A stretch of 56,306 bases of DNA from a virus (Duplodnaviria > Caudoviricetes), in IMG/VR virus record IMGVR_UViG_3300025888_000014, positions 1 to 56,306 of that record; one strand, 5' to 3'. The notes below the pieces were generated by a model. The model was not told the origin of the DNA. It saw only the letters and a program-made list of their open reading frames with translations, and searched no databases. This document shows, piece after piece, positions 1 to 56,306 of the stretch. Both the position numbers and the translations under genes were made by a program. Numbering within the stretch: position 1 is the stretch's first letter; every line of letters starts with the position of its first letter.

Positions 1-127
1 GTCGAGGGCCAGCAACGACTTTCAACTTGCGGGATCATACCAGCCCACCGGGAACTACCAGACGGGCAGCCAGCCGCTGAGCAACCTGACGGCTAATCCT
101 TCTTTGTACCAGGCCACGAACACCACG
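1..127 (+). repeat. Exact copy of 55973..56099 (part of the 351-bp fibre repeat; contig break)
   Basis: Base-by-base identity for 127 nt, then divergence (TTGACC vs CTTACC). Confidence 0.95.
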
Positions 128-3100
128 TTGACCCAGTGGTCGACTATCCCGACGAACTACGTGCCGCCGCAATCGGGCCATGCAACCAACTCGGACCTAG
201 CAACCTTGGCGACTACGGCGATCACCAGCACCAACGCACAAACTTCGATGGTATCCAGTAACACCATCGGGCTGACGAACTTGACTGCGGGTTACCTCGT
301 GAAGTCTCTGGGTGGGAGTGTCGTAACTAATTCGCCCATTTATATTAATGGCAGTAGTCTTTTAGTGGGTACAACCAATAGTGATGTCGGCGGGACTTCA
401 GCGGGGTCGATTATTAAACCAGCAGGCCAAATGTATTTAGCAACCTCTAATTCTTCCGCCTGGAATAATTATCAGTTGAGTTTGGACAACCAGAACAACG
501 CTAGCAATTTACCAAATATTGTGTTCGGTAAAAAGGGAAACATTAAAGCGTATATCGGCTCCGAAGGGTTGTTGAATGGGTCTTTGAATGGCCAGTTGAC
601 ATTCGGTTTAATGACTTCCGCCGGGGCGACTGTGGAGAAAATGAGAATGGATAGCAACGGCAGTTGGGGAATGTCAAACACTCTAACCGTTGCTGGAAGC
701 GTTACTGCAAATTCATTGATACTGAATGGTGCTGCTAGTGGTAACGGAACTTTTGCAGTTCCGAATGCGGCGGGTGCTTTGAAATGGGTTTTCCCAAGCA
801 GCGCGGGTTCAAGTGGATACTTTCTGCAAGGAGACGGGGGGCCAGGTGGAGTTGTGACTTTTAGCATGGCTCCAAATATGATCACGACGAATGTGTTTGG
901 ACTTACTTCCATCAATGGTTCTACGAATCCTGCGCAAACATTGGCAGCTGATCCAGGTGTGTCAATTACTACGACCGGGGCAACAACCAGGATTGGCATG
1001 GCTGCATCCGCTTTGACAATGGGCGCTGGGCTTTCGGGCGGGACGTACAACGTGAGTTCAAATGTGACTGCTGCGGTGGTTTTTGGCGTCACGGCCGGCA
1101 CTTCCATCCAGGGCGACGATATTTCTAGGACAAATAACAGGTATCCGACAGACCATTCTGGTAATACAGTCACCAGTGCGGTGGCCCTGGCCACCTTGGC
1201 GACTACAGCGATCACCAGCACCAATGCTTACAACGTCGTTGGTTTGACGAACCTAACGGCGGGTTACCTAGTGAAATCGTTAGGCGGCAGCGTGGTGACT
1301 AACTCACCAGTGTTCACCGATGGAACGAATACCGGCTTTGGGACAATCACACCAGGGTATATTTTAGATGTCAATGGACCAGCAAGAATAGGGTATCCCG
1401 ACTATACATACACTCCACAACCCCTTTCTCTTTTTGGATCTGATGCCGGTATAAGTATTTTTTCAACTAATACTGATGTCGGTGCAGAGTCCTATGTTGC
1501 AGCGTTCATGAAAGATGGGGCTGGTACATACAGGAAAGTAGGAGCGGACGCTTTTCAATGGACGGACCCTAACGTAACCAATGGTTACGCTTCGTGGAAT
1601 GTTCATACAACATCCTTTACAAATGGTGTTACTTCGGATAATTTTGGATTAACAGTCTGGGCAAAACATGGTGCGGCCTTTTTCCCTTCTAGTTTAAGCG
1701 GTTCACTAGCACCCGGATTAAACACACTCAGAATTTATGGTAATAATGCGTGGATGGGTAATGGTAACGAGGGTCAACTCCAGATTTACAGTACTAACAG
1801 TTATGGAAGGCTTTTAATCGGTTACGATACGACAAGTGATTTTGGATTTATTCAACCAGTAAAGATCGGTTCTGGATGGACGAACTTGGTTCTTAATCCA
1901 TCGGGTGGTTATGTTGGCGTCCACAACACGAATCCCGTTGCAAATCTTGATGTTAACGGCACTATGCGTGTCGGTACTGGAGCTGGTTGGGGTTCAATGT
2001 ACCCTTTAGAACTCGTTGGCGATAATGCTGGACTTGCTATAACATCCACAAACACAGCATTGGGCACTGAATCGTACGTAGCATCTTTCATCAAAGACTC
2101 AGCGGGAGCATACAGAAAGCTGGGGGCAATTTCATTTAACTGGGCGGATAATGATGCAGTCGATGGTTATGCTGCATGGAATGTTCACACAACCGTGTTG
2201 AATGCCGGTGTACCAACAGATTTGTACGGTTTGACAGTGTGGGCAAACCACGGGGCGGCCTTTTTTCCAGCCAATCCAACCAGCGCCAGTGCTCCTGGGA
2301 AAGGTGTAGTTAGGTTCAACGGAGATAATAACAACAATGATCTTGGACAAATATTTATTGTGGGTACGACAGATGTAAACCAAAGGTTAACCTTAGGATA
2401 TAATACTACAAGTGATTATGGATTTTTAGCGGCATACAAGACTGGATCTGGCTATAAACCTCTAGTGCTGAGTCCGGATGGTGGTGGTGTAGGGATTGGC
2501 ACGACGCCGACGGCTGTGTTTCACACAAAACCTGCAACTGGAACGATTACTGGATTATCAAATGCAGTTTCAAATGCGTCGGCCTTTTTTGAATCTGGAT
2601 CATCAACATGGGGGTTAGCAGTTGGTTATCTTCCAACCGTAGTAATGGGTTTGCAAGTAGTGGATAAAGCACAGACTGGAAGTTCCACACTTGCCCTTAA
2701 TCCATACGGTGGGAATGTGATTGTCTCGAATAATCTAGCCGTGGCTGGAACGATCACTGGTTCGATAGCTGGGAGTAACATTACCAGCGCGGTATCAAAT
2801 GCGACTACGGCGACCAGTTCAACCTACGCCGGGATTGCGACGAACTTGTTGGGTGGCGAGCTTGATCCGGGATTCACGGCAGTCAGCAATCTATTTGCAC
2901 CCAAAGCAGCCCCTAAATTCACGGGACTAATTACCATTGGCGGAAACAGGTTTGGTTCTATGTATGCGGGAGATAATTATTATTATGCCGGTTCGAACTC
3001 GTTTGTAGTCGAGAACTGGTTGGGGACTCATGATATTTTTACCGTACTCAGCAACGGTAATGCTACGTTTACGGGAACCATAACTGCGCCCACGGTGGTA

Positions 3101-5209
3101 TCTACCAACCTGGTTGGCAATGCTACCATGGCTACCAACGCGAACCTGGCCACGCTGGCGACGACGGCCATAACCTCGACCAACTCTTACAACGTCGTTG
3201 GTTTGACGAACCTAACGGCGGGTTACCTAGTGAAATCGTTAGGCGGCAGCGTGGTGACTAACTCACCAGTGTTCACCGATGGAACGAATACAGGATTCGG
3301 GACTGTCACGCCGGGGGCGATGATACAAGTCAATGGTACGAGTGCTTTGTATGGCGATATTAATGCCGGATCGTCCGCATTGTTAAACACGTCCACTGCG
3401 GTGAACGGCACGGGTGGAGGCAGTCGGCAGTTTGACGCTTCATTTACAGGAGCAAGTGCAACCGGGTTCACCGGAACGGATTCATCGGATTCCGCACGCG
3501 GTTATTTTCCTGTGACCATCGTGGCCGGAAGGTGGTATAGAATATCGGCGACAACAGTCACGACTAATAGTAATCTCACAACTCTGTTCACAGCTACCGG
3601 ACTTAATTATGTGTTGAACACGGTTGAATCAATTGCAATTCCCGCAGTGTCCGGCACGGTTTATGATTTCCACGCGACCGGAAACGCATCTTACATTGGA
3701 TTCGCCATGACATATACGAGCGGAACAATGTCATTGGTTGTTTCCAACTTCTCGATTGTGGAACTTGGAACTACACTGGTAACCAGTCTCGGAAACGTGG
3801 GAATGTCAAATAACCTCACCGTGGCGAGCAACATCTACGCTGCGAACCTCGGCACCATCGCGAGCCGTGGCAGCAATGAGTACGCTCTGGTGAGTCATAG
3901 CAATGCATGGAGTACAATCACCGGCATTCCGATCTTCACGGATGGAATGGCTATCGGAATCGGCACGACGAACCTATGGAACACGCTAGTAGTCAGTGAT
4001 GGTACTGAAAAGAACATTGAGTTTGTTACTGGAAGTTCGCCGGGCATATTGAGTTATGATAGAATAGCGGACACGTATCTTCCATTAGACTTTTACGCTT
4101 CTGGCGCAACTCCAACACTTCACCTAAACACCAATGGCAACGCGACATTTGCGGGTGTAGTGACTGCTCCATCTCTGACTTTAACTGGCTTGAGTTCAGG
4201 CACGGACACGAACTTTCTGACGATTGACGGCTCTGGCGTGGTGCATTATCGAGTCGGCGGCGTGAATGGAACCAACGGTTTACCGGGAGCCAAGGGTGAT
4301 AAAGGGGATACCGGGAATACGGGAGCGGCAGGAACCAACGGTGTGGGAATTGCTGGAACCAACGGTTTGAACGGGACCAACGGATTAGCAGGAGTCAAGG
4401 GCGACAAGGGGGATACGGGAAACACAGGACTGTCCGGGACCAATGGACTTTCGGGAACCAATGGGCTGGCTGGATCGCCAGGATTGAATGGCACGAACGG
4501 AATTAACGGGACCAATGGTTTAACCGGTTCTCAAGGCGTTTCCGGCACGAATGGACTTGCTGGTTTGAATGGTACGAACGGCATGGCGGGTTCTCCGGGT
4601 GCGGCGGGAACTAATGGATTGGCGGGCTTGAATGGGACCAATGGCCTGCCTGGCGCTACGGGCGCGGCTGGCACCAACGGCCTGAACGGGGTCGGCATGA
4701 CCAACATCATAAACAAGGGGAATACCAACTATTCGCTCGTGTCTGGAAGTAATGGGGTTTTGAGCCTCAGCGCAGAGGACAGCAGTATTACCCTGACCAG
4801 CCAGGGGACAAACATCGCAATTCGAGCAAACTCGACGGGAACGGGCGTTAGCGGATACGCTATTAAATGGACAGGTTCCACGACTTATAATTATTACACT
4901 GCGGCACTTGATGTATCTGGGGTTACAGTTCTAATAATAACAAACCAATCATCATATTTCACTGTCAGCGGCATAGCCGGTGGGTTTGCTGGACGAATGG
5001 TAAAAATTATGAACATGTCTAACGGGGATGTTACCTTTAACCATTTGGGTCATAGTAACACAGGTGATGGATTCAGTCCCGAACCTTCAACAGTAAATTC
5101 AATTGTTCAGTGGGGGTCGGTGCTTGAATATGATGTCTTAGGAAACGGATATTCCAGAGAACTAATCCATAATGGTACTAACTGGGTGGAATTTGTCGGA
5201 ACATATTAA
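2..5209 (+). CDS. Giant tail fibre/adhesin-like protein, C-terminal part (5' end lies at 55437..56306)
   Basis: Frame is open from position 2 (TCG AGG GCC...), upstream of the track's TTG at 104. It is T/N/G/S-rich with fibre-type VGIGTT-like motifs, a duplicated ~190-aa domain and a collagen G-X-Y tract. Its first residues continue the repeat unit of the ORF at the window end. Confidence 0.8.
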   Translation, partial: SRASNDFQLAGSYQPTGNYQTGSQPLSNLTANPSLYQATNTTLTQWSTIPTNYVPPQSGHATNSDLATLATTAITSTNAQTSMVSSNTIGLTNLTAGYLVKSLGGSVVTNSPIYINGSSLLVGTTNSDVGGTSAGSIIKPAGQMYLATSNSSAWNNYQLSLDNQNNASNLPNIVFGKKGNIKAYIGSEGLLNGSLNGQLTFGLMTSAGATVEKMRMDSNGSWGMSNTLTVAGSVTANSLILNGAASGNGTFAVPNAAGALKWVFPSSAGSSGYFLQGDGGPGGVVTFSMAPNMITTNVFGLTSINGSTNPAQTLAADPGVSITTTGATTRIGMAASALTMGAGLSGGTYNVSSNVTAAVVFGVTAGTSIQGDDISRTNNRYPTDHSGNTVTSAVALATLATTAITSTNAYNVVGLTNLTAGYLVKSLGGSVVTNSPVFTDGTNTGFGTITPGYILDVNGPARIGYPDYTYTPQPLSLFGSDAGISIFSTNTDVGAESYVAAFMKDGAGTYRKVGADAFQWTDPNVTNGYASWNVHTTSFTNGVTSDNFGLTVWAKHGAAFFPSSLSGSLAPGLNTLRIYGNNAWMGNGNEGQLQIYSTNSYGRLLIGYDTTSDFGFIQPVKIGSGWTNLVLNPSGGYVGVHNTNPVANLDVNGTMRVGTGAGWGSMYPLELVGDNAGLAITSTNTALGTESYVASFIKDSAGAYRKLGAISFNWADNDAVDGYAAWNVHTTVLNAGVPTDLYGLTVWANHGAAFFPANPTSASAPGKGVVRFNGDNNNNDLGQIFIVGTTDVNQRLTLGYNTTSDYGFLAAYKTGSGYKPLVLSPDGGGVGIGTTPTAVFHTKPATGTITGLSNAVSNASAFFESGSSTWGLAVGYLPTVVMGLQVVDKAQTGSSTLALNPYGGNVIVSNNLAVAGTITGSIAGSNITSAVSNATTATSSTYAGIATNLLGGELDPGFTAVSNLFAPKAAPKFTGLITIGGNRFGSMYAGDNYYYAGSNSFVVENWLGTHDIFTVLSNGNATFTGTITAPTVVSTNLVGNATMATNANLATLATTAITSTNSYNVVGLTNLTAGYLVKSLGGSVVTNSPVFTDGTNTGFGTVTPGAMIQVNGTSALYGDINAGSSALLNTSTAVNGTGGGSRQFDASFTGASATGFTGTDSSDSARGYFPVTIVAGRWYRISATTVTTNSNLTTLFTATGLNYVLNTVESIAIPAVSGTVYDFHATGNASYIGFAMTYTSGTMSLVVSNFSIVELGTTLVTSLGNVGMSNNLTVASNIYAANLGTIASRGSNEYALVSHSNAWSTITGIPIFTDGMAIGIGTTNLWNTLVVSDGTEKNIEFVTGSSPGILSYDRIADTYLPLDFYASGATPTLHLNTNGNATFAGVVTAPSLTLTGLSSGTDTNFLTIDGSGVVHYRVGGVNGTNGLPGAKGDKGDTGNTGAAGTNGVGIAGTNGLNGTNGLAGVKGDKGDTGNTGLSGTNGLSGTNGLAGSPGLNGTNGINGTNGLTGSQGVSGTNGLAGLNGTNGMAGSPGAAGTNGLAGLNGTNGLPGATGAAGTNGLNGVGMTNIINKGNTNYSLVSGSNGVLSLSAEDSSITLTSQGTNIAIRANSTGTGVSGYAIKWTGSTTYNYYTAALDVSGVTVLIITNQSSYFTVSGIAGGFAGRMVKIMNMSNGDVTFNHLGHSNTGDGFSPEPSTVNSIVQWGSVLEYDVLGNGYSRELIHNGTNWVEFVGTY
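1227..1332 (+). repeat. 106-bp exact direct repeat within the fibre gene (second copy 3186..3291; diverged third copy ~270..340)
   Basis: Identical DNA encoding YNVVGLTNLTAGYLVKSLGGSVVTNSPVFTDGTN; preceded in all three copies by LATLATTAITSTN. Confidence 0.9.
4259..4696 (+). repeat. Collagen-like (G-X-Y)n tract dominated by GTN triplets
   Basis: GVNGTNGLPGAKGDKGDTG...GAAGTNGLNGVG in the translation. Confidence 0.9.
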
Positions 5210-5236: not shown

Positions 5237-5686
5237 ATGGGACGCACGTTTATAAAAGCCTACGGGCAAGTGATTTATAGGGGACTGTCAATAGCACTGT
5301 CGCTATTGATAGCGGGAATAATACTTTACCTTAACAGCAACTATGTAAACATAAAAGAGTATAAGGCCGAACAGGCCATAATCCGAACTGATTTAGTCGA
5401 GCAACAGAAAGAAGTTAGGGCGAGTTTAACTGCACAACAAACAACTATTAAATCGGATTTACAGAGCCAACAAGTATCAATTAAATCCGATTTACAATCT
5501 CAGCAAGTGCTGCTTGGTGCCAATTTGATTGAATTCCAGAATAAAAACACCGGAGAGCACCTTGAATTTTACAAAATTCTCGCGGGAATAAATCAGACAT
5601 TGGCGGTGATAAACGAACAGAATAAGCGGCTTGCCGACCATGAAGACAGACTGCGCATCTTAGAAAAAGGCAAACCGCAACCTTGA
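5237..5686 (+). CDS. Membrane-anchored coiled-coil protein (holin/i-spanin-like)
   Basis: One N-terminal TM helix (LSIALSLLIAGIILYL), 11-aa repeats (IKSDLQSQQVS/L) and C-terminal LADHEDRLRILEK; lies directly after the fibre gene. Confidence 0.55.
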   Translation: MGRTFIKAYGQVIYRGLSIALSLLIAGIILYLNSNYVNIKEYKAEQAIIRTDLVEQQKEVRASLTAQQTTIKSDLQSQQVSIKSDLQSQQVLLGANLIEFQNKNTGEHLEFYKILAGINQTLAVINEQNKRLADHEDRLRILEKGKPQP

Positions 5687-5710
5687 CAACTTCTTTCGAA
5701 GAACGATATT
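5683..5710 (+). promoter_or_regulatory. Putative sigma70 promoter, leaderless geometry
   Basis: TTGACA(5683)-N16-GATATT-N6-ATG(5717); the -10 box is weak. Confidence 0.4.
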
Positions 5711-5716
5711 CAAAAT

Positions 5717-6118
5717 ATGACGCCAGAACTTAGGAACGGAATCATCGCTGGTCTTTGCCGAACGCTGGTCGTTTATATCGCTGCCCGGTTATCCATCGGC
5801 GCGCTGGACCAGGGACACCTTGACCAGGTGGTTGCCGCTATGACAGTCGTGGTGTTCGCCGGTTATTCAGCATTCGCCAAATGGCGGGCGAGTAAGAAAG
5901 CGGCCGTAAAGGTTGAGAATCTGCAAACCGTCGTGGACACCAAGGTCGCCGAAACCCAGGTGCTCCGGGCCGCGGTCGCCGATAGCCAGGCGGAAACCGT
6001 CGTCATGATTGACGCCCTGGTCCAAGCCAAGGCGCCCATCCCCGAACTCCTGCCGACCCAAAAACTGGCCAGCATCGTGGATCCCGCGGCTGTCCTCCCC
6101 AATCTCGGTAAACCGTAA
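5717..6118 (+). CDS. Putative holin-like membrane protein
   Basis: Two hydrophobic segments, then basic KWRASKK and a helical tail; within the membrane/lipoprotein cluster. Confidence 0.5.
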   Translation: MTPELRNGIIAGLCRTLVVYIAARLSIGALDQGHLDQVVAAMTVVVFAGYSAFAKWRASKKAAVKVENLQTVVDTKVAETQVLRAAVADSQAETVVMIDALVQAKAPIPELLPTQKLASIVDPAAVLPNLGKP

Positions 6119-6131
6119 ACCAAAAACCAAA

Positions 6132-6446
6132 ATGTACACACCCCCCGCAAAACCAGTAATCGCACCTAAACAAGACCTGCCATGCGCCACCGGTCCATTA
6201 GGGTCGCAACCAGCGCCCATCTACCAGCCAGGTCCTAAACCTGCGCCTCCCGTTGCATCCCCCGTGGCCAACGCGCCCTACAACCCCGCGCCCACCGTCG
6301 CCTCGTTGACCAGCGATCTGTCGAAAGCGACGTTGACCATTTCCCAGGCATCTCTAGCGCTGGGATTCACCGGCCCGGCTCGCGACTTTCTCGCGTTCGC
6401 CCAGGCTCTAGCGGTCGAACTCAAAACGCTCCGTGCGAAAAAGTAA
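6132..6446 (+). CDS. Pro-rich hypothetical protein
   Basis: ATG at 6132 after an A/C-rich leader; MYTPPAKPVIAPK...; in frame with track ORF 6009..6446. Confidence 0.6.
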   Translation: MYTPPAKPVIAPKQDLPCATGPLGSQPAPIYQPGPKPAPPVASPVANAPYNPAPTVASLTSDLSKATLTISQASLALGFTGPARDFLAFAQALAVELKTLRAKK

Positions 6447-6464
6447 CCCTAAACCCCAAACAGT

Positions 6465-6602
6465 ATGACGAAAATCAAATTGATAATCGGAATCGTCCTT
6501 TGTGGCGCATTCCTTGCCGCCTGTTCCTCAACCCCTCAACCCACGCCGCCCATCGTCTGGCCGCCCATCGCGGATGCCCCGTGCGCCGTACCGGCCAAAT
6601 AA
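6465..6602 (+). CDS. 45-aa Pro-rich lipoprotein, o-spanin (Rz1)-like; absent from the ORF track
   Basis: MTKIKLIIGIVLCGAFLAA-CSSTPQPTPPIVWPPIADAPCAVPAK; LAAC lipobox. Confidence 0.7.
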   Translation: MTKIKLIIGIVLCGAFLAACSSTPQPTPPIVWPPIADAPCAVPAK

Positions 6603-6615
6603 ACGAACCAAATCT

Positions 6616-7020
6616 ATGAACAAAAAAATCCTAACTCCATTCGCCGCGGCCATTGCGATCGCGGCGTGCCTGTTCCTCATATCCACCACGCCGGGCTGTA
6701 ACACGCCCCAGCGGACGGCCTACGTCGCCGTAGGTGTAACTCAATCCCTGGCCGTCGGCGCCATGAACGGTTGGGGCGACTGGGTACGGGCCGGTCGCGC
6801 CACGGATGCTGACCAAGTTGCCGTGCGCCAAGCGTGGGAACGCTACCAGGGTGCCGTGCGCGTCGCCCATTCGGTGGAACTCAGCTTGCAGACTTCGATA
6901 GCGACCACTGATCCGGTCTGGCTTCAAGTCACGGCCGCTGTCGGTGCATCGTCCGACGAGTTGATCGCTCTGATTAAATCCCTAACCTCCACTCCAAAAC
7001 CAATAACCCCAGGAACCTAA
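6616..7020 (+). CDS. Lipoprotein, helical (possible spanin component)
   Basis: MNKK + hydrophobic core + TPG-C putative lipobox; ATG 6616 in frame with track ORF 6502. Confidence 0.65.
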   Translation: MNKKILTPFAAAIAIAACLFLISTTPGCNTPQRTAYVAVGVTQSLAVGAMNGWGDWVRAGRATDADQVAVRQAWERYQGAVRVAHSVELSLQTSIATTDPVWLQVTAAVGASSDELIALIKSLTSTPKPITPGT

Positions 7021-19849: not shown

Positions 19850-20011
19850 TTACGAGGAAACGCCCGCTGGTATTGAAGGAATCACAACCGCTACCTTCTT
19901 AGGCCGCCCGCCCTTCAGCCCGTTCAGCCGTACTGCCGCCGCTTTTGCCTCTGATTTTACCAGCCCACCACGCCGCCCAGCCTCACCGCAACTCATCGTT
20001 TTTTTCGTCAT
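19850..20011 (-). CDS. 53-aa KGG/AT-hook-like basic protein
   Basis: AGRRGGLVKSEAKAAAVRLNGLKGGRPKK; not in the track. Confidence 0.65.
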   Translation of the reverse strand: MTKKTMSCGEAGRRGGLVKSEAKAAAVRLNGLKGGRPKKVAVVIPSIPAGVSS

Positions 20012-20020
20012 AATTTGTTT

Positions 20021-20215
20021 CTAGTTTATGTTCTTTAGCGCCCGTTTAATCCGGTTTATGTCGTGGACAGACAATACCCAACCGCCATCAAGCACGGAAC
20101 GCATCACCTTCACCACCTTGTCCAAATGCTTCTGTTGAATCAAAGCGTGTCGGACCATCACACCGTCAATGGGGATGAAATAGGCAATTGGTGTTTTCGT
20201 GTGTTTGTTGCTCAT
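20021..20215 (-). CDS. Hypothetical protein, paralogue of the C-terminal domain of 44898..45698
   Basis: YFIPIDGVMVRHALIQQKHLD...ALKNI. Confidence 0.7.
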   Translation of the reverse strand: MSNKHTKTPIAYFIPIDGVMVRHALIQQKHLDKVVKVMRSVLDGGWVLSVHDINRIKRALKNIN

Positions 20216-30858: not shown

Positions 30859-32682
30859 TCAAGTTTGGGTTAACAGGCTGTTGCTGATCGCCTCGTCATA
30901 TCGGCGGCGCTCGGCTTCAAAGTAATCTTCCTCGTCATCGTCTTGCGGTTCCACGTTTGAGCCTAGGCGTTCGATAACGAATCCAAGACGGGTCGCCATC
31001 TCCAAACCGATGGCGATCGCGTCGAAATTGTTTGGCGACTTCCCGCCATTGCTCTCTTTCAGGTCCTCTTTTTTCTCAATGGAGATTTTTGCACCGGCTA
31101 CTGTTTTATATTTGCGTTGGCAACCCTCTTCAAGTGCCGTTTCAGGAAGTCCTCGAATCTGATCCGAGTCGATGGCGTAGGACACTCTGAGCCATAGTTC
31201 GGTAATGAAACGGTCAACGTGTTCGACCCAAGTTTTTAGGCGTCTGGTTTGGTTGGTTCCTTCCATGACGTATTCACCATCTCGCACGATTCTATCAGTC
31301 GGGCGACCGCCAGCGTTAATTGGGACCGGGCAGTTAAAGCCGAACACCTGGGCAAACGCCTGGCCAATGGTGCCCTTCCCGAATGAATCGTATCCGCAGT
31401 TTTCAACCGGGCATTTATGAGATTCGAGGTCCGCTTTTACCGCCACGGCAATCTGAGTCTCGGGCGTTTTGAATTTGGGATCATCGCGTTTAAGGATCAG
31501 AATCGGAATGACTCGGAAATCAGTAATGCAGAAAATCGTCTTGCCGTTTGCGGCTGTGCCAAACTCGAAAAAGTAAATCACGCAATCATCACCGCCACCA
31601 TAAGCCGGGTCCAGGGCGCAAATCTTCGTACGAGCCACACCCTTCCATATCGGTTCATCTGAAGCATGGTGCTCGGTGCATTGATCTCGCGTTATGATCC
31701 GTTTGCTCGCCATGGAAAGGCATGTCACACCTTTTACCTGTGACTTAAATGCTTCTGAATCCACGCCGCCAGAATTAGCGGCCATTAACTTTGCATATTT
31801 AGGTCCGATTAGACCCTTGTAATGCTCGGCTTCATCGGGAAATTCGACGATGTTTGGAGAATCGGTTCCCACCAAATTGACGCATTTCCCGCCATAAAGT
31901 TTGGTTGGCCATGTGGTCGTAACGTCTGGTTCAATGTAGGATGTCCAACCTTTGAGCGGTTCTGCGGCCAGTCCAAGGGGAGAATTAACGTCATGATCTG
32001 GGTTGCTCATGGCCGCTACTTTCAACTCGTAATTGGAGTAAAGATTGGGGAGGCAAGCGAGAAATGCCGTTTTCATGAAAGATAAATCATCGGCTGCTAT
32101 CCGCATGTGGGGCGCTTTGATACCGGCGTAATTTCCCAGGCCAGCAGATGATTTATCCCGGCAAGCAATTCCCTGAATCCCTCTATCCATCGCGGTCGTA
32201 GCATCGGGATCATCGTCCTCGTAAATGATGGCGTGTTTGTAGTCAACGATCCGACCCGGTAACCATGGGTGAAGTGCCCGAGCCTCGGTAAACATGGTTT
32301 TGATCTGGGCGAAAATCGAGTTTTCTAGTTTCTTGACGGTGGTCGTGGAAATGATGAAAAGGGTGTTTTTGGGATCAGCCCACCAGTCGAGCATGTAGGA
32401 GGCGGATACCGTGGAGGTCTTTTGAGACGAAGCGGATCCCATGAAAATCGTGAAGATGTTCTCGCTGGACTCCTTCAAAATCAATTCCGTCCAACGGTGG
32501 ACGTATCGTTTCGGCCAGGCGAGTTTGAACGCCTGGAGTTTATGCCAGAACATCCCTTCGCCGCATTCCTCGCCTTTTTTGTTCGTCCAGCGGCCACCTT
32601 TAGCGATACAGAAAAGTTCAATCTGGAGCGGATAATCGTTCACCCCCCAGGTGCAACCGTATTTTTTTGTGCTTTTAGCCAT
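30859..32682 (-). CDS. terL: Terminase large subunit
   Basis: Walker A-like GSASSQKT, Walker B-like IAADD, SNP coupling motif, nuclease LDPAYGGGDD and KSPNNFDA. Confidence 0.88.
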   Translation of the reverse strand: MAKSTKKYGCTWGVNDYPLQIELFCIAKGGRWTNKKGEECGEGMFWHKLQAFKLAWPKRYVHRWTELILKESSENIFTIFMGSASSQKTSTVSASYMLDWWADPKNTLFIISTTTVKKLENSIFAQIKTMFTEARALHPWLPGRIVDYKHAIIYEDDDPDATTAMDRGIQGIACRDKSSAGLGNYAGIKAPHMRIAADDLSFMKTAFLACLPNLYSNYELKVAAMSNPDHDVNSPLGLAAEPLKGWTSYIEPDVTTTWPTKLYGGKCVNLVGTDSPNIVEFPDEAEHYKGLIGPKYAKLMAANSGGVDSEAFKSQVKGVTCLSMASKRIITRDQCTEHHASDEPIWKGVARTKICALDPAYGGGDDCVIYFFEFGTAANGKTIFCITDFRVIPILILKRDDPKFKTPETQIAVAVKADLESHKCPVENCGYDSFGKGTIGQAFAQVFGFNCPVPINAGGRPTDRIVRDGEYVMEGTNQTRRLKTWVEHVDRFITELWLRVSYAIDSDQIRGLPETALEEGCQRKYKTVAGAKISIEKKEDLKESNGGKSPNNFDAIAIGLEMATRLGFVIERLGSNVEPQDDDEEDYFEAERRRYDEAISNSLLTQT

Positions 32683-32772: not shown

Positions 32773-33573
32773 ATGGCATTACCAAGTTTTTTCATGTGCG
32801 GTTGCGGGTGCGGAACGGCGGGGGTTGGAACAGGCGCCGACATTCCGGGGTCCGCCGGGGCAAATGGGATCAATGGCCAGAACGCCTACACGACTCTGGC
32901 CGCGGCGCTGACGATCCCTGCCATCGGGGCGAACGTGACGGCCACGGTGCCAAACGCTTATTTCATGGCATTCGGCCAGGATATTGCCATCGGATCGTCC
33001 ACGATTGGGATGGCTCATTTCAAGGTGGCGGCGAACGTAACTTCCCAGACTAGCGTTGTCCTGACGTTCATGGGGTATCCTGGGGACGCTGCGCCAGCGG
33101 CCGTGTTGCCGATCGGCTCGGTGGTTTCGCCAACGGGAACGTGGGGGTTGCCCGCGCCGTTGAAGGTGTACGGGTCGGGAACGCCTTATGCCATCACTAA
33201 TTTTCATCTTCCAATTATCATGGGAACCACCAGTCCTTCGTTAACCCTTACTTCTCCAGGGACATATCTGATTTTTTCGAGAGTAAAACTCAGAAACAAC
33301 TCGGCAGCCACCGTTGCCGGGGAATATGTAACCATAAATCTGGACAATGCTGGTAATGTTCCGATCCCTAATGCAACTACAGAGTGGGTTTGTCCTGGAA
33401 TTGTGAATGGAGTTGGACGTTATCTGGCCGATCTGGTCCTTCCACCAGTCGTTTACACTACGGCGGTGATAACTGATACGGTGACACTTATGGCCATAGC
33501 CAACGCCGGAGTTACCAATGCTGGCGCGTACAATATCTCAGAGGCTGAAATCGTAGCCATCCGAATTTCTTGA
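32773..33573 (+). CDS. Putative virion/tail protein
   Basis: CGCGCG N-terminus, short collagen stretch, beta-rich C-terminal domain. Confidence 0.55.
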   Translation: MALPSFFMCGCGCGTAGVGTGADIPGSAGANGINGQNAYTTLAAALTIPAIGANVTATVPNAYFMAFGQDIAIGSSTIGMAHFKVAANVTSQTSVVLTFMGYPGDAAPAAVLPIGSVVSPTGTWGLPAPLKVYGSGTPYAITNFHLPIIMGTTSPSLTLTSPGTYLIFSRVKLRNNSAATVAGEYVTINLDNAGNVPIPNATTEWVCPGIVNGVGRYLADLVLPPVVYTTAVITDTVTLMAIANAGVTNAGAYNISEAEIVAIRIS

Positions 33574-44537: not shown

Positions 44538-44876
44538 CTAACAGGACACTGGGTTATATTGCCCATTTAATACAGCTAGAGCTTTTAGAATTGGTCGCAA
44601 CCTTGTGGGGTGACGTAACTTTCTTATTGCCTTTGATTCTTTCTGTCTAATAACTTCTCTTGTTACGCCACGAAGTTTCCTTCCTGTTTCTTTTAGAGTT
44701 AATTTGGTGAATGAAAATCTACATCTAATTACAAACTGTTCATCTGGTGTTAACGATGCAAGTTCATCATCTATTGCCCTAATGGTTATCTGATCCAGAT
44801 TTTCTTGATCTCCTGGCGTGTATGAAAGACAATCTGATCCAAGAACAGTGCGTAAAAGTAGAAATCCATTCAGCAT
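44538..44876 (-). CDS. Stand-alone sigma70 region 4 protein
   Basis: LTPDEQFVIRCRF..TLKETG..VTREVIRQKESKAIRKLRHP; start may be 44894. Confidence 0.85.
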   Translation of the reverse strand: MLNGFLLLRTVLGSDCLSYTPGDQENLDQITIRAIDDELASLTPDEQFVIRCRFSFTKLTLKETGRKLRGVTREVIRQKESKAIRKLRHPTRLRPILKALAVLNGQYNPVSC

Positions 44877-44897
44877 ATTAAACGACGGGGTCAACTT

Positions 44898-45698
44898 TTA
44901 TTTCACGCTGATGTTCTTTAGCGCCTGTTCAATGCCTTCAATTCCACGGCAAATCTTCATCCACGTTCTAAACGTAGTGGTCATTTGAAAGGCTTTGATG
45001 CTTGAAAGTCTTTTTAACGCTAGGGTCAACGCCTCATTCGCCTCGTCCAGATGCTTCTTTTGAATGAGGACGTGCTGAACCATAACGCCGTCGATAGGGA
45101 TGAAATAACCGTGCCCTTTCGGAACCTTCTCAAATCCAAGGGCCACCGGAGTTTCTTTCCAATGCCATTCCCCCATACCCCATTTACCGTCACAAACATT
45201 GGCTTTGGGTGGTGGCTGTTGGGTCACAACTTTCAGTCCCGTCTTTTCGGGAGCGGCGTCCACGTAGGCTTTGGCTAATTCGGGATACTTCAAGGCAGCA
45301 GCCGCACCGATCCTTTTGATGGATTCTTGCTCTTGCCGTTGGTATTCCGAGACGAAATATCCTTTTTTGGTTGGTTTCTCTTTCATAGCAATCTGTTTTT
45401 GCCGGTGCGGAGGAACTTGATCAAAGAACTCCTTTATGACTGGTTTCTTTTTCCACAATCGCGCCGCACGCTTATCAAAAATGTGGGTCATCTGGAGCGA
45501 AATTGGTTTCTTATAATGTCGAATCGTTACCGTACCTGGGGACTTGGACCTTTTGGCGTCGGCATAGATTTTCTTCTTCACGATGGCAGCAACCTTCTTC
45601 CGGTCGGGAGAACCTTGCAGCCACCGCCATTTTCCAATTAACGCTTTTTCGTCGATAACATTGCCTTCGGCAGGCGATTTGACAGTTTTCTTTTTCAT
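44898..45698 (-). CDS. Basic hypothetical protein
   Basis: GGAGG RBS, ATGA overlap. Confidence 0.7.
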   Translation of the reverse strand: MKKKTVKSPAEGNVIDEKALIGKWRWLQGSPDRKKVAAIVKKKIYADAKRSKSPGTVTIRHYKKPISLQMTHIFDKRAARLWKKKPVIKEFFDQVPPHRQKQIAMKEKPTKKGYFVSEYQRQEQESIKRIGAAAALKYPELAKAYVDAAPEKTGLKVVTQQPPPKANVCDGKWGMGEWHWKETPVALGFEKVPKGHGYFIPIDGVMVQHVLIQKKHLDEANEALTLALKRLSSIKAFQMTTTFRTWMKICRGIEGIEQALKNISVK

Positions 45699-47209: not shown

Positions 47210-48403
47210 TTAAACGATGGTTAACAGTGGCACAGGGATAATAAATTTTCCACCTTTATCTCGAAAGGTTTGTTCCTTGGCAAGGATTTCGTTCTTGTAA
47301 TTCCAGGCGAACAGAATGGCCATATCGGCCTCGGCCAAGCGGTCGGGCGACACGATGGGGATGTTGGTTCCCGGGCTGAACTTTCCTTGCTTCTCGGGCG
47401 TGGTGTCGGTGATAAACTTGATCGAATACTCGCTAAACCGGCAGGCATTGATCCATACGGATGATTTGGCCGAAGCGCCGTAACCGCAAACCAACTGGCC
47501 AGCTTGTCTGGAATAAACCGCCCTGGTGAGTTCACCTATCATCTTCTTCACTTCCTCATTGAAGTCCCGCCATTTCCTTTCCCAATCCATCTTCTTCTCA
47601 AAGTCCAAAAAGGTTTGCACGTTTCCGTCGGCTACAGCATCCCGTCGTTTCAGTAGCATGACGATGGATTGGCCGTGTATGGCATAGCGCACCACGGACA
47701 CCAGTTTGAGGCTGGAAGTGGCTAGCAGGGCATTCATAGCCGTGACGGTCATGTAAGACAGATGCTCGTGATAGATGCAATCAAAGGCACACTGAGAAAG
47801 CATAGGACTACATTCAGGCACCTCGATAGCGATGACGGTTTTATCGTTAGCCAGAATTTCAAGTCCACGGATGAAGTCCTGCCAATCGTCAACGTGGCAA
47901 AAGACGTGGCGGGCAAGAATTAGGTCCGATTTATCGCTAAGTCTATTCGCCAGCTTTTCGTCGAAGAACGCGCAAATTGTCGTGATACCAGAATCATTCG
48001 CCTGCCTGGCGAGATTACTGGCAGGATCAATCCCCGCAACAAATCCCGCTCCCAGTTCCCTAAACCGCCTGAGCAAAGTGCCGGTATTACTTCCAATCTC
48101 CAGGACATTATTCATCGAACAGCGTTTTTTCAGGTCGTTAAAAAGCAGGTCAATGTGGGTTCTATGCGTCTGGCCCTCATCGCTTCGATAGGAGTATTTC
48201 GAGTACAACTCTGCCGGGTCAACCACAACAGAGAGTTGCGCCAGCGTGCAATCCTTGCACAGCATGACGCAAAGCGGGGCGGATGCCGCCACGCCTTCAC
48301 CCGGCCCGCGAAAATCGTTGGCCAGGTGCATGTCGCCCAGGTCAAAGACGGATGTCAGTCGCAACGATCCGCAGGCACGGCATTTAGTGATGGTTCGGTT
48401 CAT
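47210..48403 (-). CDS. NDP-sugar C-methyltransferase (TcaB9/NovU-like)
   Basis: CRACGS..LG..LANDF..CKDCTLAQL zinc domain, LEIGSNTG, IYHEHLSY, IHG, YGASAK, FAWNY. Confidence 0.92.
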   Translation of the reverse strand: MNRTITKCRACGSLRLTSVFDLGDMHLANDFRGPGEGVAASAPLCVMLCKDCTLAQLSVVVDPAELYSKYSYRSDEGQTHRTHIDLLFNDLKKRCSMNNVLEIGSNTGTLLRRFRELGAGFVAGIDPASNLARQANDSGITTICAFFDEKLANRLSDKSDLILARHVFCHVDDWQDFIRGLEILANDKTVIAIEVPECSPMLSQCAFDCIYHEHLSYMTVTAMNALLATSSLKLVSVVRYAIHGQSIVMLLKRRDAVADGNVQTFLDFEKKMDWERKWRDFNEEVKKMIGELTRAVYSRQAGQLVCGYGASAKSSVWINACRFSEYSIKFITDTTPEKQGKFSPGTNIPIVSPDRLAEADMAILFAWNYKNEILAKEQTFRDKGGKFIIPVPLLTIV

Positions 48404-49991
48404 TTTGGAATGTCTTTGTTGCTAAGTTAAAATGCGAATCTGTAATTGTATCTGCGCTTCGAGAATATTGTGCCTTGGTTCTTGGATCAAGGCCAAACCA
48501 TTTATCGCCGTGGTGCCAACCGAGTAACATGTTGCTTTGTCCTCCACGTCGGAAAATGTTGGCTGGTTTTCTCCAATCCCACCAGTCATATTCACCATCC
48601 CACGTTACTAGTTTTACCGGCAAACCTTTCTTGTGAATCATTCTCCAAAAGGTTCTTGCACCATTGGTGTCTGGAGCTTTTATACCCTGGGACTTGTTGG
48701 CCGTACCGTGTTCAAAGTTATAGCGGTCATTCTTGGTAACCATAGGGTAGGGATATTCAGCCAACCATTTCGGCGAACACCAGAAACCAGTGGTGTTTAG
48801 ATGGGGGGATGATTCAAAAGAACTGGTCATTCCGTACATGCCGGGGCCGTGCTTTTGCCACGCTTCCACCATTCGAGTCAGCCATCCAGCGCTATAAAAG
48901 TAGATGCTAGGGCCACAGTACAACGTCATGTCAGCCGTGGATTGTTTAGACGCCGCGATGAAAGCGCCTATGTCTTGACCAGAATTATCATGGTCAAGGT
49001 AGGAAACATTCGGCAGACGGTCAAACATCGCCCGTCGATCTCCGGTTGGCTGGCCACCGTTGCAAACGATGGTAGTCTTGTGTTCTTCGCCTGGCGGGTT
49101 GACAAAATATGTGTTCACGAATCGCTTTGAAAGATTTTCAACTTCCGGGTGCTGCGCCCAGTAAACGTAAACTAGTTCGATCTTCATTTTTGGACCTTCG
49201 CTTTCCTTAATCAATTTCCATCCGTAAATGTAACGCCTTGGCACCATTCGCTTGCCGTGAAAACCGAAAGACTTCCTGGTTCTGTTCAAAAGGTCAACGC
49301 TGAACTTTCCGGCCTGGGACACGGGTGCCCATCGCAGACCCTCAGCCTCTAAACGGGCGCGGTGCGTAATGCAAACGTACTGATCTGCCCAAATCAAGGG
49401 GTCGCTGGTATCCTTTGGCAGCCTCAACTTAGCTTCGAGCATCGCACGCGATTCGATGTAGAACCCGCCATTGCCCACGGTGCCAGGCAAGGGCAACCAC
49501 GGCGCTCCGATGTAGTCGTAGTCGAGAAAGGCAGCATCCCACATTTCAGGGTACAGGATGAACCCATCTTCGTGAACCGAAAATGCGAAATCCGAATCGA
49601 GTAAATGCTGAGGCGCCACCTGGTTTAGGAATGCACTCAACTGGTCGGCTGGCACCTTCTCAACTTTGACCCATTCGAATTCATCCCTAGCTTCAGGACC
49701 TGGATCAAGATGCGAAAGCAGTCGCGTCGTCTTGAACTTGCAGAATCGGTTCATGTAACGAAGAACACGAATCACCTTGTCCAGATAGGCGCGATCATCG
49801 CCGTGCTCGAAGGCGCTCCAAAGCGTAACGTTTGGCAGGTCAATTATGGCAACTGGATCAGTCGTAGGCACGGGCAACCGCTCGGCCTGCAACAGGGAAA
49901 TGCGCGGGTCAATGCCGTGCGCCGCCATCCAGGCGTCATGCAGGCGCTTGTTGTGGGCGACTCGGGGCGGTATTGGGGCGGGCGTGGTCAT
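48384..49991 (-). CDS. Bifunctional glycosyltransferase-like protein (DUF5672-like + RgpF-like)
   Basis: DGF..W..FLDYDYIGAPW..VGNGGF..FS..FGFHG; second domain from MKIELVYVY with NSGQDIGAF, HLNTTGFW, FEHG. Confidence 0.7.
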   Translation of the reverse strand: MTTPAPIPPRVAHNKRLHDAWMAAHGIDPRISLLQAERLPVPTTDPVAIIDLPNVTLWSAFEHGDDRAYLDKVIRVLRYMNRFCKFKTTRLLSHLDPGPEARDEFEWVKVEKVPADQLSAFLNQVAPQHLLDSDFAFSVHEDGFILYPEMWDAAFLDYDYIGAPWLPLPGTVGNGGFYIESRAMLEAKLRLPKDTSDPLIWADQYVCITHRARLEAEGLRWAPVSQAGKFSVDLLNRTRKSFGFHGKRMVPRRYIYGWKLIKESEGPKMKIELVYVYWAQHPEVENLSKRFVNTYFVNPPGEEHKTTIVCNGGQPTGDRRAMFDRLPNVSYLDHDNSGQDIGAFIAASKQSTADMTLYCGPSIYFYSAGWLTRMVEAWQKHGPGMYGMTSSFESSPHLNTTGFWCSPKWLAEYPYPMVTKNDRYNFEHGTANKSQGIKAPDTNGARTFWRMIHKKGLPVKLVTWDGEYDWWDWRKPANIFRRGGQSNMLLGWHHGDKWFGLDPRTKAQYSRSADTITDSHFNLATKTFQNEPNHH

Positions 49992-53985: not shown

Positions 53986-55365
53986 ATGGCTTTAAGTGAT
54001 TATCAGTGTGCTCAAATTGCGAGTCTTTTGGCTGAAAGGCCAGTGCAATACGATGAGGATTTCGTAAAAGAGCGAATTCCTTCCCAAAGCGTTTACCTGA
54101 ATGCCTACCCGTCCAAGACGTGGAAGGCGGACACCGGGGACGAAAAGAATTTTGACGTTTACCACGTCACGGCACCGAACGACAACGGTATCTGGGACAA
54201 GGTTGATGCGACGGATTGCATGCAGCCTCTCTGCAACATGCCCCGCAAACAGATCGGATGGGGTCACACGCTCCTGAACTATGGCAAATACCGGACGGAA
54301 TACACCACCCCGCCGTTCTGCTACACCAAGCTTCGCAACATGAATCACGTTCAGATTCAGTTAGCGGAAATCATCAAGGGCCTCAAGAAGATGCCCGATC
54401 AGGTGGTTAATTCCTTCGTTGAATACCATGCAATGCGTCAGTTCGGCAGTGGCGGAGATGGCATGATTTACATCGCCGGTGAAGCCAGGATCGAATTGCC
54501 GGTAAACGATTCCGCCGCTGCGGCCAACCAGGCCTTTTTCATGCCAAACGGCGACATCAACTTGGGTGGGGCCGGAAACGTGCCTACCAGCCAGTTGAAA
54601 ATGGAGTACCTGAATTCCTACGCGGATGTTTTACGGGCCAACGGTTACCACGATGGCGAGTACAACATCGACGGCAAATTCACCATCATACTGGATCTCC
54701 AAACGGCGTTGAATCTGACGACCCAGAACCCAGTTCTGGCCAATATGTGGGCGCTCGCGGACTTCAAGAAAGGCACCGAGTATTACCAGTATGGTTTGAG
54801 CAATGGTTGCGGGAATTTCTTGTTCAAATACAACCATGAACAGCCGCGGTTTAACGACCTCGGTGGCGGGATTATTCGCCGTGTCCTTCCGTGGGAAAAC
54901 GTTCCGACCAATGAAAGCGGTCTCAAGCGGAAATACAGCGCGGCATACCGGAATGCCAAAATCGCCGCATACCACATCTACAGTCGGGCGGCTCGAACCC
55001 TGTTCACTTCGGACGAGGAATCGATCAATCCCGAGATGAAGTTCGGCATTGGCAAGGGCCTCATGGGTGCTTGGCAATGGCTCACGCCGGATGTGATTAT
55101 CACCAACGACCCGCTTACGGGCGTGCAGTGCCAGATCCGAAACGACACTCACAAGCAGGGTTACTGGGTCGGCGAGTACGAGTTGGGCATCAAAAACGAG
55201 AACCCGCTGATCGAGATGTGGATCTTGGCCCTGCGCGAGCCGGCGGCTCCTGGCGATGACGTGCCGATTACCAACGCGAGTGCCGGGTATTGGGACACTG
55301 ACGCCGCGAACGGCTACCAAGACCTGAGGGCGTACAACGACTTGTTCTGCCCGATTGAGGAATAG
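53986..55365 (+). CDS. Probable major capsid protein
   Basis: 459 aa, C-ending codon bias suggesting high expression, long leader, downstream hairpin; no other capsid candidate in the genome. Confidence 0.65.
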   Translation: MALSDYQCAQIASLLAERPVQYDEDFVKERIPSQSVYLNAYPSKTWKADTGDEKNFDVYHVTAPNDNGIWDKVDATDCMQPLCNMPRKQIGWGHTLLNYGKYRTEYTTPPFCYTKLRNMNHVQIQLAEIIKGLKKMPDQVVNSFVEYHAMRQFGSGGDGMIYIAGEARIELPVNDSAAAANQAFFMPNGDINLGGAGNVPTSQLKMEYLNSYADVLRANGYHDGEYNIDGKFTIILDLQTALNLTTQNPVLANMWALADFKKGTEYYQYGLSNGCGNFLFKYNHEQPRFNDLGGGIIRRVLPWENVPTNESGLKRKYSAAYRNAKIAAYHIYSRAARTLFTSDEESINPEMKFGIGKGLMGAWQWLTPDVIITNDPLTGVQCQIRNDTHKQGYWVGEYELGIKNENPLIEMWILALREPAAPGDDVPITNASAGYWDTDAANGYQDLRAYNDLFCPIEE

Positions 55366-55417: not shown

Positions 55418-55436
55418 AAATTCCATGCCTTTACTC

Positions 55437-56306
55437 ATGAAACGATTCATCTTCCTGGCCGTTTTTCTTTTTCAAACGTTGCTTTTCGCTCAGGCACCAC
55501 CGCCGTACTTCAATACATGGATCAAAGGGACCAGTAACCAGATCGTGGTTACGGCGAAGCCATACGGCGTTCAACTTTCTCTGGCGACGAATATTCCTTG
55601 GACGAATTGGACGCTTGGCGCGGGGACGAATATCTGGATCGTGACAAATGCCGGGAGTTACGATATCAACCTGATAACTACGAATCTTGTAGCGACATCG
55701 GGCTGGCCTACGACGTGGAACTGGTCGGCAATCCTGGCCACCGGCAATCTGTCCAACTGGTTCAACATCCCCACGAACTACGTGCCACCGCAAGCGGGGC
55801 ATGCGACCAATGCTGATCTGGCGACCTTGGCCTCTGGCGGCTGGCCGACGACGTGGAGCTTGGCGGCGAACATCACGGATGAGGGGACTGCGGCTTACTC
55901 GAATGCCACGGCGTTTGCACTGGCGGCGCACAACCAGGCGCTGAGCACGATTACGGGCGCTGGAACGATAGCGTCGAGGGCCAGCAACGACTTTCAACTT
56001 GCGGGATCATACCAGCCCACCGGGAACTACCAGACGGGCAGCCAGCCGCTGAGCAACCTGACGGCTAATCCTTCTTTGTACCAGGCCACGAACACCACGC
56101 TTACCCAGTGGGGGACGATACCCACGAACTACGTGCCGCCGCAAGCTGGCCACGCGACCAATGCGGACCTGGCGACCACGGCCTCTGGCGGCTGGCCGAC
56201 GACGTGGAGCTTGGCGGCGAACATCACGGATGAGGGGACTGCGGCTTACTCGAATGCCACGGCGTTTGCACTGGCGGCGCACAACCAGGCGCTGAGCACG
56301 ATTACG
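55437..56306 (+). CDS. N-terminal part of the giant fibre, with Sec-type signal peptide (runs off the window; absent from the track)
   Basis: 290 open codons: MKRFIFLAVFLFQTLLFA-QAPPPYFNTW...; alternative ATG at 55425. Confidence 0.85.
   Translation, partial: MKRFIFLAVFLFQTLLFAQAPPPYFNTWIKGTSNQIVVTAKPYGVQLSLATNIPWTNWTLGAGTNIWIVTNAGSYDINLITTNLVATSGWPTTWNWSAILATGNLSNWFNIPTNYVPPQAGHATNADLATLASGGWPTTWSLAANITDEGTAAYSNATAFALAAHNQALSTITGAGTIASRASNDFQLAGSYQPTGNYQTGSQPLSNLTANPSLYQATNTTLTQWGTIPTNYVPPQAGHATNADLATTASGGWPTTWSLAANITDEGTAAYSNATAFALAAHNQALSTIT
55770..56306 (+). repeat. 351-bp (117-aa) tandem repeat
   Basis: PTNYVPPQ units start at 55770 and 56121; 56180..56306 is identical to 55829..55955. 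Confidence 0.95.

Follow-up and report, generated by a model that had tools for sequence, protein, structure and literature searches.

Introduction

Tailed phages are assembled wholly in the host cytoplasm, and their fibres are not normally expected to have export signals. T7 gp17 and the P22 tailspike each have a conserved N-terminal anchor followed by variable distal domains, and it is separately known that other phage proteins use the host general secretory (Sec) pathway, among them T5 Llp, the signal-arrest-release (SAR) endolysins, the spanins, and Lom and Bor of lambda, which are encoded in some cases among tail genes. PblA and PblB of Streptococcus mitis phage SM1 are tail-fibre-like proteins with an additional role on the surface of the host cell, which in this monoderm host they reach by phage lysis and not by a signal peptide. 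Here we report a gene that appears to combine these traits. In a predicted tailed phage (IMG/VR virus record IMGVR_UViG_3300025888_000014, analysed over its full 56,306 bases and called the window below), a fibre gene directly downstream of the major capsid gene encodes a protein that begins with the complete anatomy of a signal for Sec and signal peptidase I. Lom, Bor, Llp and the SAR endolysins share with it a phage origin and Sec signals or Sec use, but none of these small envelope proteins or enzymes is fibre-like or has a module common to receptor-binding-type paralogues.

Two further systems resemble this arrangement in part. WceF of Pantoea stewartii has an N-terminal export signal and is a tailspike-fold trimer acting on envelope glycans outside the cytoplasm; it differs in being bacterial and not phage-encoded, in carrying a twin-arginine translocation (Tat) signal and in having no collagen stalk (PMC7949094). 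Proteins of Porphyromonas gingivalis prophages are phage-encoded and have type-I signals with Gln at +1 (PMC10367356, PMC5837995), although these are discussed as host modifiers and are not encoded by fibre-like genes after a capsid gene (PMC10367356). Our search of the main texts of papers on fibres, tailspikes and collagen-like prophage fibres returned no tailed-phage clade whose fibre- or tailspike-like proteins were described as having a conserved type-I signal; the novelty lies in the combination of Sec-using phage proteins with tail fibres.

Signal-like N-terminus of the fibre protein

A reading of the window from its letters alone (the sequence-only reading) had placed directly after the capsid gene an open reading frame (ORF) with an MKR n-region, a hydrophobic core, Ala at -1 and Gln following it. 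This ORF is present, starting either at ATG 55425 or at a second ATG, 55437, which puts it 60-72 nt beyond the capsid-gene stop (55365) on the same strand. The features of this region are:

53986..55365, + strand: major capsid protein gene, HK97 fold, 459 codons
55390..55417, + strand: G+C-rich 12-bp hairpin in the capsid-fibre intergenic region, lacking a U tract
55425..56306, + strand: 5' part of the fibre gene, 294 codons, 3' end open at the last base of the record
55437..55490, + strand: signal-peptide-like segment MKRFIFLAVFLFQTLLFA, 18 residues (22 with start 55425), predicted cut after Ala18
55491..55583, + strand: module conserved where the mature protein is predicted to begin, QAPPPYFNTWIKGTSNQIVVTAKPYGVQLSL, aligning with the homologue P0009 and with signal-bearing ORFs of 10 related loci

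Translation from ATG 55437 gives MKRFIFLAVFLFQTLLFA/QAPPPYFNTW, where the slash marks the predicted cut. The n-region, MKR (or MPLLMKR), has a net charge of +2; the core, FIFLAVFLF, scores 3.26 on the Kyte-Doolittle scale over 9 residues and is 9-15 residues long; and the c-region, L-F-A/Q, offers Leu at -3, Ala at -1 and a non-proline residue, Gln, at +1. The highest 15-residue hydrophobicity of the whole fibre falls on FIFLAVFLFQTLLFA (2.49, with the runner-up window at 1.73), a 19-residue window over the same core scores just 1.93, and a hydrophobicity scan of the whole protein found no second membrane-like segment. Both of our detectors, which are rule-based and consider the charge of the n-region, how hydrophobic and how long the core is, and the -3/-1 rule (detector 1 being the laxer), call the N-terminus signal-like. 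In the AlphaFold2 (AF2) model, residues 3-18 form a helix whose end coincides with the predicted cut, with predicted local distance difference test (pLDDT) values of 86 and 71 for the blocks; for the first 130 residues, modelled from 11 sequences, the mean pLDDT is 44.6, and everything beyond the signal helix lies below 50. The fibre N-terminus is thus supported as having full Sec/signal-peptidase-I anatomy. It is like the Sec signals of diderm bacteria in its basic n-region, core of 9-15 residues, small residues at -1/-3 and non-proline +1, and unlike their usual cargo in that the predicted signal heads a fibre of more than 2000 residues in the late structural region of a tailed-phage genome.

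Upstream of the gene, the first in-frame stop is met at 55356, and between it and 55425 there is no further start codon, so the N-terminus can be no longer than MPLLMKRF.... A variant contig of low depth (3.78) carries a G-to-T change at 55439 and reads ATT in place of the second ATG, and for this reason 55425 may be the true start rather than 55437; the signal-like segment is kept with either. Neither ATG is preceded by a Shine-Dalgarno motif, which is also absent before most other genes of the window. No promoter-like or terminator-like site was seen between the capsid and fibre genes, where the folding z-score is -1.78.

Other routes of export were considered and dropped, as the features that they require were not found. 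The fibre holds no cysteine at all, so a lipobox for signal peptidase II fails; the Tat motif (S/T-R-R-x-F-L-K) is missing from a protein whose n-region reads M-K-R-F with no R-R; and the core, rich in Phe, Leu and Ile, does not match the weakly hydrophobic, Gly/Ala/Ser-rich segment of the SAR type. Pfam found no C-terminal domain (CTD) of the type IX secretion system (T9SS), PEP-CTERM signal, autotransporter barrel or two-partner secretion (TPS) domain in the fibre or the scanned relatives, and no C-terminal anchor was seen in them by eye.

A gene split across a tandem repeat

The same early reading held that the ORF joins in frame with 2..5209 at the other end of the record to give a fibre/collagen protein of at least about 2030 residues. 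The two ORFs are indeed parts of one gene, but the ends cannot be joined directly: the 5' part fills 294 whole codons and the other ORF begins at base 2, so a direct join of base 56306 to base 1 is one base out of frame. The parts concerned are:

2..5209, + strand: remainder of the fibre gene, 1735 codons, 5' end open, with three internal repeats of the 'ATLATTAITSTN...GLTNLTAGYLVKSLGGSVVTNSP' junction
55767..56306, + strand: 351-nt tandem repeat in 117-codon units, comprising copy A followed by 189 nt from the start of copy B
1..210, + strand: further tandem-repeat sequence at the opposite end of the contig, base 1 being preceded by a gap of 17 nt (or 17+351n)
4253..4693, + strand: collagen-like Gly-X-Y stalk, residues ~1418-1564 of the 1735-residue part
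4694..5206, + strand: globular C-terminal part after the stalk

The gene is in two pieces because the contig ends fall within the 351-nt repeat, whose copies are 95% identical between 55767-55955 and 56118-56306 and 92% identical between 1-210 and 55973-56182. In register with a complete copy, the gap between base 56306 and base 1 is exactly 17 nt, which in copy A read GGCGCTGGAACGATAGC; adding 17+1 nt (6 codons), or 17+351n nt, brings 55425..56306 and 2..5209 into one frame. The minimum length of the fibre is then 290+6+1735 = 2031 residues, in agreement with the size first proposed. In public contigs from four peat-metagenome runs the repeat is collapsed to a 381-nt cyclic piece that goes back 351, with depths relative to flank of 86.7/20.1, 26.8/4.9, 8.9/~3 and 10.3/~3.8 (~2.7-5.5x). 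Because the collapsed piece exceeds its flanks in depth, the assembler broke inside the repeat, which probably has more copies than were assembled. A second, smaller repeat lies at 55701-55832, in the N-terminal part of the fibre, where public contigs of three runs lead from 55832 back into 55701 via 15 other letters; since local depth here is 2-4x flank, the 'SGGWPTTW' region also differs in copy number among genomes.

The stalk matches the Collagen family (PF01391, E 1.4e-19) and collagens in the PDB, with E values down to 2.8e-68. The globular part after it resembles, by eye only, the C-terminal end of P0009. Collagen is the sole Pfam match of the 1735-residue part, and the N-terminal part matched no family in Pfam or PHROGs; the fibre thus matched no known tail-fibre or tailspike family in Pfam (both parts) or PHROGs (N-terminal part). 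A BLAST comparison of both parts with the ORFs of related loci returned a single collagen match.

The sequence-only reading had supposed that the fibre is exported in order to be folded or modified in the periplasm, a rationale that finds no support here because the protein has no cysteine and its N-x-S/T sequons are not enriched (50 against 42.9 expected from composition, z = 1.3). Periplasmic disulfide formation was accordingly rejected, as was sequon-driven glycosylation.

Recurrence and domain organisation in related phages

Applied to reference phages, the detectors flagged only Lom, Bor, Rz and Rz1 among the 48 coding sequences of lambda, with RexB added by detector 1, and gp18.5 alone, by detector 1 alone, among the 33 of T7. 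No capsid, tail or fibre protein of either phage was flagged, T7 gp17 and lambda J and Stf all being negative, and in this the controls agree with the general picture of signal-less fibres. We then surveyed 85 related loci with a complete capsid gene, taking non-nested ORFs of at least 300 residues and extending 8 kb downstream. Signal-like ORFs made up 67/183 of those downstream of the capsid gene and 5/204 of those upstream, and one or more signal-like long ORFs on the capsid strand were present in 49 of the 76 loci that extend at least 3 kb beyond the capsid gene; these counts include near-identical loci. The survey yielded 61 distinct signal-like N-termini. Their hydrophobic cores diverge freely in sequence, and the residues ahead of the shared motif described below keep, by eye, the -3/-1 pattern (AFA/, LFG/, ALA/, VSA/, ARA/); that a hydrophobic property is conserved while the sequence drifts indicates real signal peptides.

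The closest homologue, P0009, is 47-49% identical to the window protein over the first 100 residues and reads ...VSLFG/QAPPPYFNLW near its start, with only 8 residues ahead of an identical mature beginning, QAPPPYFN. Nine database protein clusters contain the fibre repeats 'GTAAYSNATAFAL..H.Q.LSTIT' and 'IPTNYVPPQAGHATNADLAT'. Five of the nine clusters are signal-like (P0010/P0017, P0012, P0013, P0014, P0019); a start of this kind is missing from P0015, P0016 and P0011, the last of which is repetitive.

Directly after the predicted cut many of these proteins carry one of two short motifs, [AQ]-x-P-P-Y-x-x-[FW]-..-G-T-N-G-I (present, among others, in L035, P0009 and the window) or Q-P-x-x-R-[SN]-x-[FWL]-T-T-N. 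P[PASN]Y occurs in 10/61 N-termini against a background of 0.01, and [FWYLMV][TD]T[NQ] in 18/61 against 0.01-0.036, the motifs having been picked post hoc and the background being the rate in equal-sized windows. In an alignment of 12 sequences, PPY has an invariant P and an invariant Y. Beyond the motif, the signal-bearing proteins are mutually unrelated. A Pfam scan of ten proteins (P0009 and nine signal-bearing ORFs of related loci) found beta-helix/pectate-lyase domains in P0009, Laminin_G_3 in two ORFs and GH27 (melibiase/alpha-galactosidase) in one, with six lacking a match. Distal domains are exchanged between signal-bearing and non-signal fibre-like proteins: the signal-bearing proteins of L035, L039, L050 and L082 have stretches of 30-50% identity with non-signal proteins of 1537-1813 residues, and the L068 protein and a 'Cys-motif' protein from L052 share 48.5% identity at their C-termini. 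A short common N-terminal module followed by shuffled distal glycan-binding domains is, by analogy, the build of a receptor-binding protein. The clade proteins are like phage tail fibres and tailspikes in this short module, in their shuffled lectin, beta-helix and glycosidase domains and in the collagen-like stalk, and unlike them in bearing a predicted export signal.

The Cys-motif proteins form a second fibre-like class, found after the capsid gene in 31 loci and having the N-terminus M-x-C-D-P-N-T-L...C-x-x-C and no signal peptide. They often occur as tandem paralogues, sometimes followed by GPT collagen-like repeats, and the window has none. Examples are:

L046:9418-11279: Cys-motif protein
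L052:3744-5800: Cys-motif protein
L057:11757-12290: Cys-motif protein

Virus identity and host

The window is a complete IMG/VR record of class 'linear' with a CheckV completeness of 100, and related genomes of the clade measure 50-59 kb. The capsid gene product has no match in Pfam or PHROGs; its relatives comprise 7 database homologues, 80 IMG/VR loci, 8 metagenome loci and 3 contigs of metagenome-assembled genomes (MAGs). An AF2 model built from 38 sequences (pLDDT 75, predicted template modelling score 0.71) retrieved with Foldseek, as its best matches, the capsids of N4, Moo19, LME-1, GP4, P-SCSP1u, DEV and T7 at E 4e-11 to 1e-7, the lowest value belonging to N4, with 275 PDB chains at E<=0.001. 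Because the modelled capsid has the HK97 fold, the virus is assigned to the tailed phages, and it is probably podovirus-like; the contrast that the sequence-only reading drew with cytoplasmic virion assembly is therefore a fair one. A 607-residue ORF (30859-32682) has a weak large-terminase match (PF04466, E 0.0064, under the curated cut-off) and is conserved in 34 related loci, and a portal-sized ORF of 760 residues is conserved in 47. Within the capsid protein, C83 and C112 are invariant in 38 sequences otherwise 18-85% identical to that of the window, and could form a disulfide or a metal site in the HK97-fold capsid.

Neither the capsid protein nor the fibre N-terminus had any match among 50,697 GenBank phage records. 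No close IMG/VR relatives were found of the fibre N-terminus, of P0009 or of the capsid protein as a single query, and an ESM Atlas search, with all scores <=0.84, gave no lead. The runs that contain the sequence have the habitat label peat metagenome, and no RNA run is among those listed. The only cellular bins with the capsid gene are the 3 MAG contigs, labelled Verrucomicrobiota, Planctomycetota and Lentisphaerae. Because these contigs are short, the capsid gene may be there through binning rather than integration; their GC equals that of their bins, as is expected from composition-based binning, and adds nothing. Gln stands at +1 in the window fibre and in 31/125 signal-like ORFs of the clade, against 1/39 and 3/42 in 200-kb samples of two of these MAGs, which belong to the Planctomycetota-Verrucomicrobiota-Chlamydiota (PVC) phyla, part of the excess being simply the conserved 'QP..R' motif. 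The bias recalls the Q-rule of Bacteroidetes, whereas the MAG bins point instead to PVC phyla. The published Q-rule analysis concerns Bacteroidetes and did not cover the PVC phyla (PMC5837995).

Proposed export and destination of the fibre

The gene of at least 2031 codons would encode a fibre with a repeat-rich shaft, a collagen stalk and a globular tip, made as a precursor whose first 18 residues (22 from 55425) would act as a type-I secretory signal and take it to the host Sec translocon. The precursor would then cross the cytoplasmic membrane, and signal peptidase I would cut after Ala18 and expose Gln19. Throughout the clade, the region behind the major capsid gene would contain one to three genes for fibre- or tailspike-like proteins with such a signal, followed beyond the cut by a short shared module (PPY...GTN or QPxxR..TTN) and by variable glycan-binding or glycan-cutting domains. 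The shared module, once at the new N-terminus, would be the docking piece: as lysis merges periplasm and cytoplasm, fibres that had been exported and had already trimerised would meet progeny virions. We consider Sec export of the fibre precursor and its cleavage after Ala18 likely. Behind the export that was first proposed stand the anatomy of the signal, the lack of an upstream start, the recurrence in the clade and the five signal-like homologue clusters; export itself we infer from these. If the fibre is exported, the progeny virion has a little under an even chance of being its destination, and the whole chain, from a genuine signal through Sec export and cleavage to docking on the virion, is correspondingly tentative. 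It would be a bold and, in our estimate, unlikely generalisation that an uncultivated soil/peat clade of tailed phages sends its receptor-binding fibres through the host Sec pathway, with attachment at or after lysis, outside the cytoplasm, through the module exposed by cleavage.

Three points tip the balance slightly towards virion docking: the new N-terminus carries the module that these proteins share; the gene has a late-operon place, directly following the capsid gene with no promoter-like site to separate the two; and the window has a single giant fibre, which is the signal-bearing one. Several points weigh against this preference. We know of no tailed phage that exports a virion fibre, and our full-text searches on signal peptides of phage tail fibres and tailspikes turned up no such case. 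The window and its relatives encode signal-less fibre-like proteins that are candidates for the real virion fibres, namely the 266-residue ORF 32773-33573, the Cys-motif proteins of 31 loci and the proteins of 1537-1813 residues. A signal-bearing long ORF is absent from 27 of the 76 loci, and the signal calls come from detectors that are crude rules and not trained predictors. Fibres freed into the lysate would be diluted before they reached virions, and a protein without cysteine or sequon excess has no visible gain from periplasmic folding. The docking role of the mature N-terminal module is drawn by analogy with tail-fibre architecture, and AF2 models that module at pLDDT <50.

The closest competitor, unlikely in itself and nearly as likely as virion docking, is an exported protein that never joins the virion and instead works in the periplasm or at the cell surface, binding, masking or cutting glycans of the host envelope during infection; the phage-encoded host-surface adhesin that the sequence-only reading offered as its alternative comes out about as likely. 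Such a protein might block superinfection, stop progeny from sticking to debris, loosen capsule or extracellular polysaccharide ahead of release, or alter host adhesion. The same signal evidence applies to it (67/183 ORFs downstream, and the lambda and T7 controls), and GH27, pectate-lyase-like and ConA-like lectin domains suit secreted carbohydrate-active proteins just as well; the sharing of distal domains with the signal-less fibre-like proteins of the same genomes would follow because the same glycans are targeted. Lambda Lom, whose gene lies among tail-fibre genes, provides a precedent. Others are WceF, a bacterial tailspike-like enzyme described as Tat-exported (PMC7949094), and the P. 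gingivalis prophage proteins with signal peptides that follow the Q-rule, which have no known function (PMC10367356). Against a non-virion role, a collagen-stalked fibre of 2031 residues directly after the capsid gene looks structural, a short mature-N-terminal module common to proteins with unrelated distal domains is a hallmark of virion docking, and none of the devices that would hold such a protein at the surface was found, whether T9SS CTD, PEP-CTERM, autotransporter barrel or TPS by Pfam or a C-terminal anchor by eye.

It is improbable that the protein stays in the cytoplasm and that its hydrophobic N-terminus merely mimics a signal, serving as a structural helix that bundles the trimer or plugs into tail or capsid, or as an uncleaved assembly anchor. 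The confident AF2 helix over residues 3-18 would suit such a part, and false signal calls on phage capsid proteins have been ascribed to prohead-protease leaders (PMC10367356). However, some 61 distinct N-termini retain the n/h/c design and small -1/-3 residues despite the drift of their cores, a core of 9-15 residues is too short for a stable membrane span, and the detectors pick out only 5/204 long clade ORFs upstream of the capsid gene and none of the structural proteins of lambda and T7. Chance or mis-annotation, with a silent ORF or a start further downstream (for example at TTG codon 15), is still more improbable. The missing Shine-Dalgarno motif at both ATGs would fit it, but most genes of this genome lack one too; a true start past the hydrophobic segment is disfavoured by the closest homologue, which retains ...SLFG/QAPPPYFN, by the presence of the trait in 49/76 related loci and by the repeat register that carries the ORF on into the 1735-codon part of the fibre. 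Least credible of all is an enveloped or membrane-containing particle in which the fibres are spikes inserted through the secretory route. Signal peptides are usual on the spike proteins of enveloped viruses, as textbooks record, and the window has several small membrane and lipoprotein-like ORFs; but the fibres have no C-terminal membrane anchor, the capsid has an ordinary HK97 fold nearest to those of podophages, a portal-sized protein and the weak large-terminase match are present, and no membrane-remodelling genes were recognised.

A conserved signal on these fibres would mean either that virion maturation takes place partly outside the cytoplasm or that exported receptor-binding-like proteins act on the host envelope, and either outcome would be a mode of phage-host interaction for which we found no description. 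Virion docking, if true, would add a new step to tailed-phage assembly. There is also a practical consequence for annotation: signal-peptide filters often serve to separate 'host-like' or 'moron' genes from structural genes, and would misfile these fibres.

Other genes of the window

Three further features were recorded:

5237..7020, + strand: small membrane or lipoprotein-like ORFs after the fibre gene, of 149 residues (one transmembrane segment and a coiled coil), 133 residues (two transmembrane segments) and 134-172 residues (lipoprotein-like start)
10500-11006, + strand: HNH endonuclease gene in the replication module
29516-30145, - strand: HNH endonuclease gene between the portal-sized and terminase-like genes

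The ORFs of 5237..7020 are a possible holin/spanin set. The lipoprotein-like start in this run, MNKKILTPFAAAIAIAACLFLISTTPGC, belongs to 6502-7020 (+), and a second one, MNKKTAVIILAMAISLVAC/K, with a textbook lipobox, is found at 26251-26997 (+); no family match was obtained for the ORFs of either region. A 144-residue ORF at 17597-18031 (+) has a weak, sub-threshold match to a cell-wall hydrolase (PF07486, E 9e-4) and a Gly/Ala-rich, weakly hydrophobic N-terminus, MNPAIPIIAAALAGAP, that resembles SAR-type endolysins, and its product may be a second protein of this phage to ride the Sec pathway.

On the opposite strand, the genes of 47210-49991 (-) encode a sugar C-methyltransferase (PF08484, E 1.8e-36, with PF08421 and PF13489) and an adjoining DUF5672 protein (E 1.5e-10), with homologues in 6 and 11 related loci respectively; together they look like a small glycan-modification module. 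A 117-residue protein with a sigma-70 region 4 domain (E 2.1e-13) is encoded at 44538-44894 (-). A 44-nt element occurs twice, 77% alike, at 20007-20050, before the gene at 20063, and at 44890-44933, overlapping the start of the sigma-70 region 4 gene, and may be a phage-specific regulatory site.

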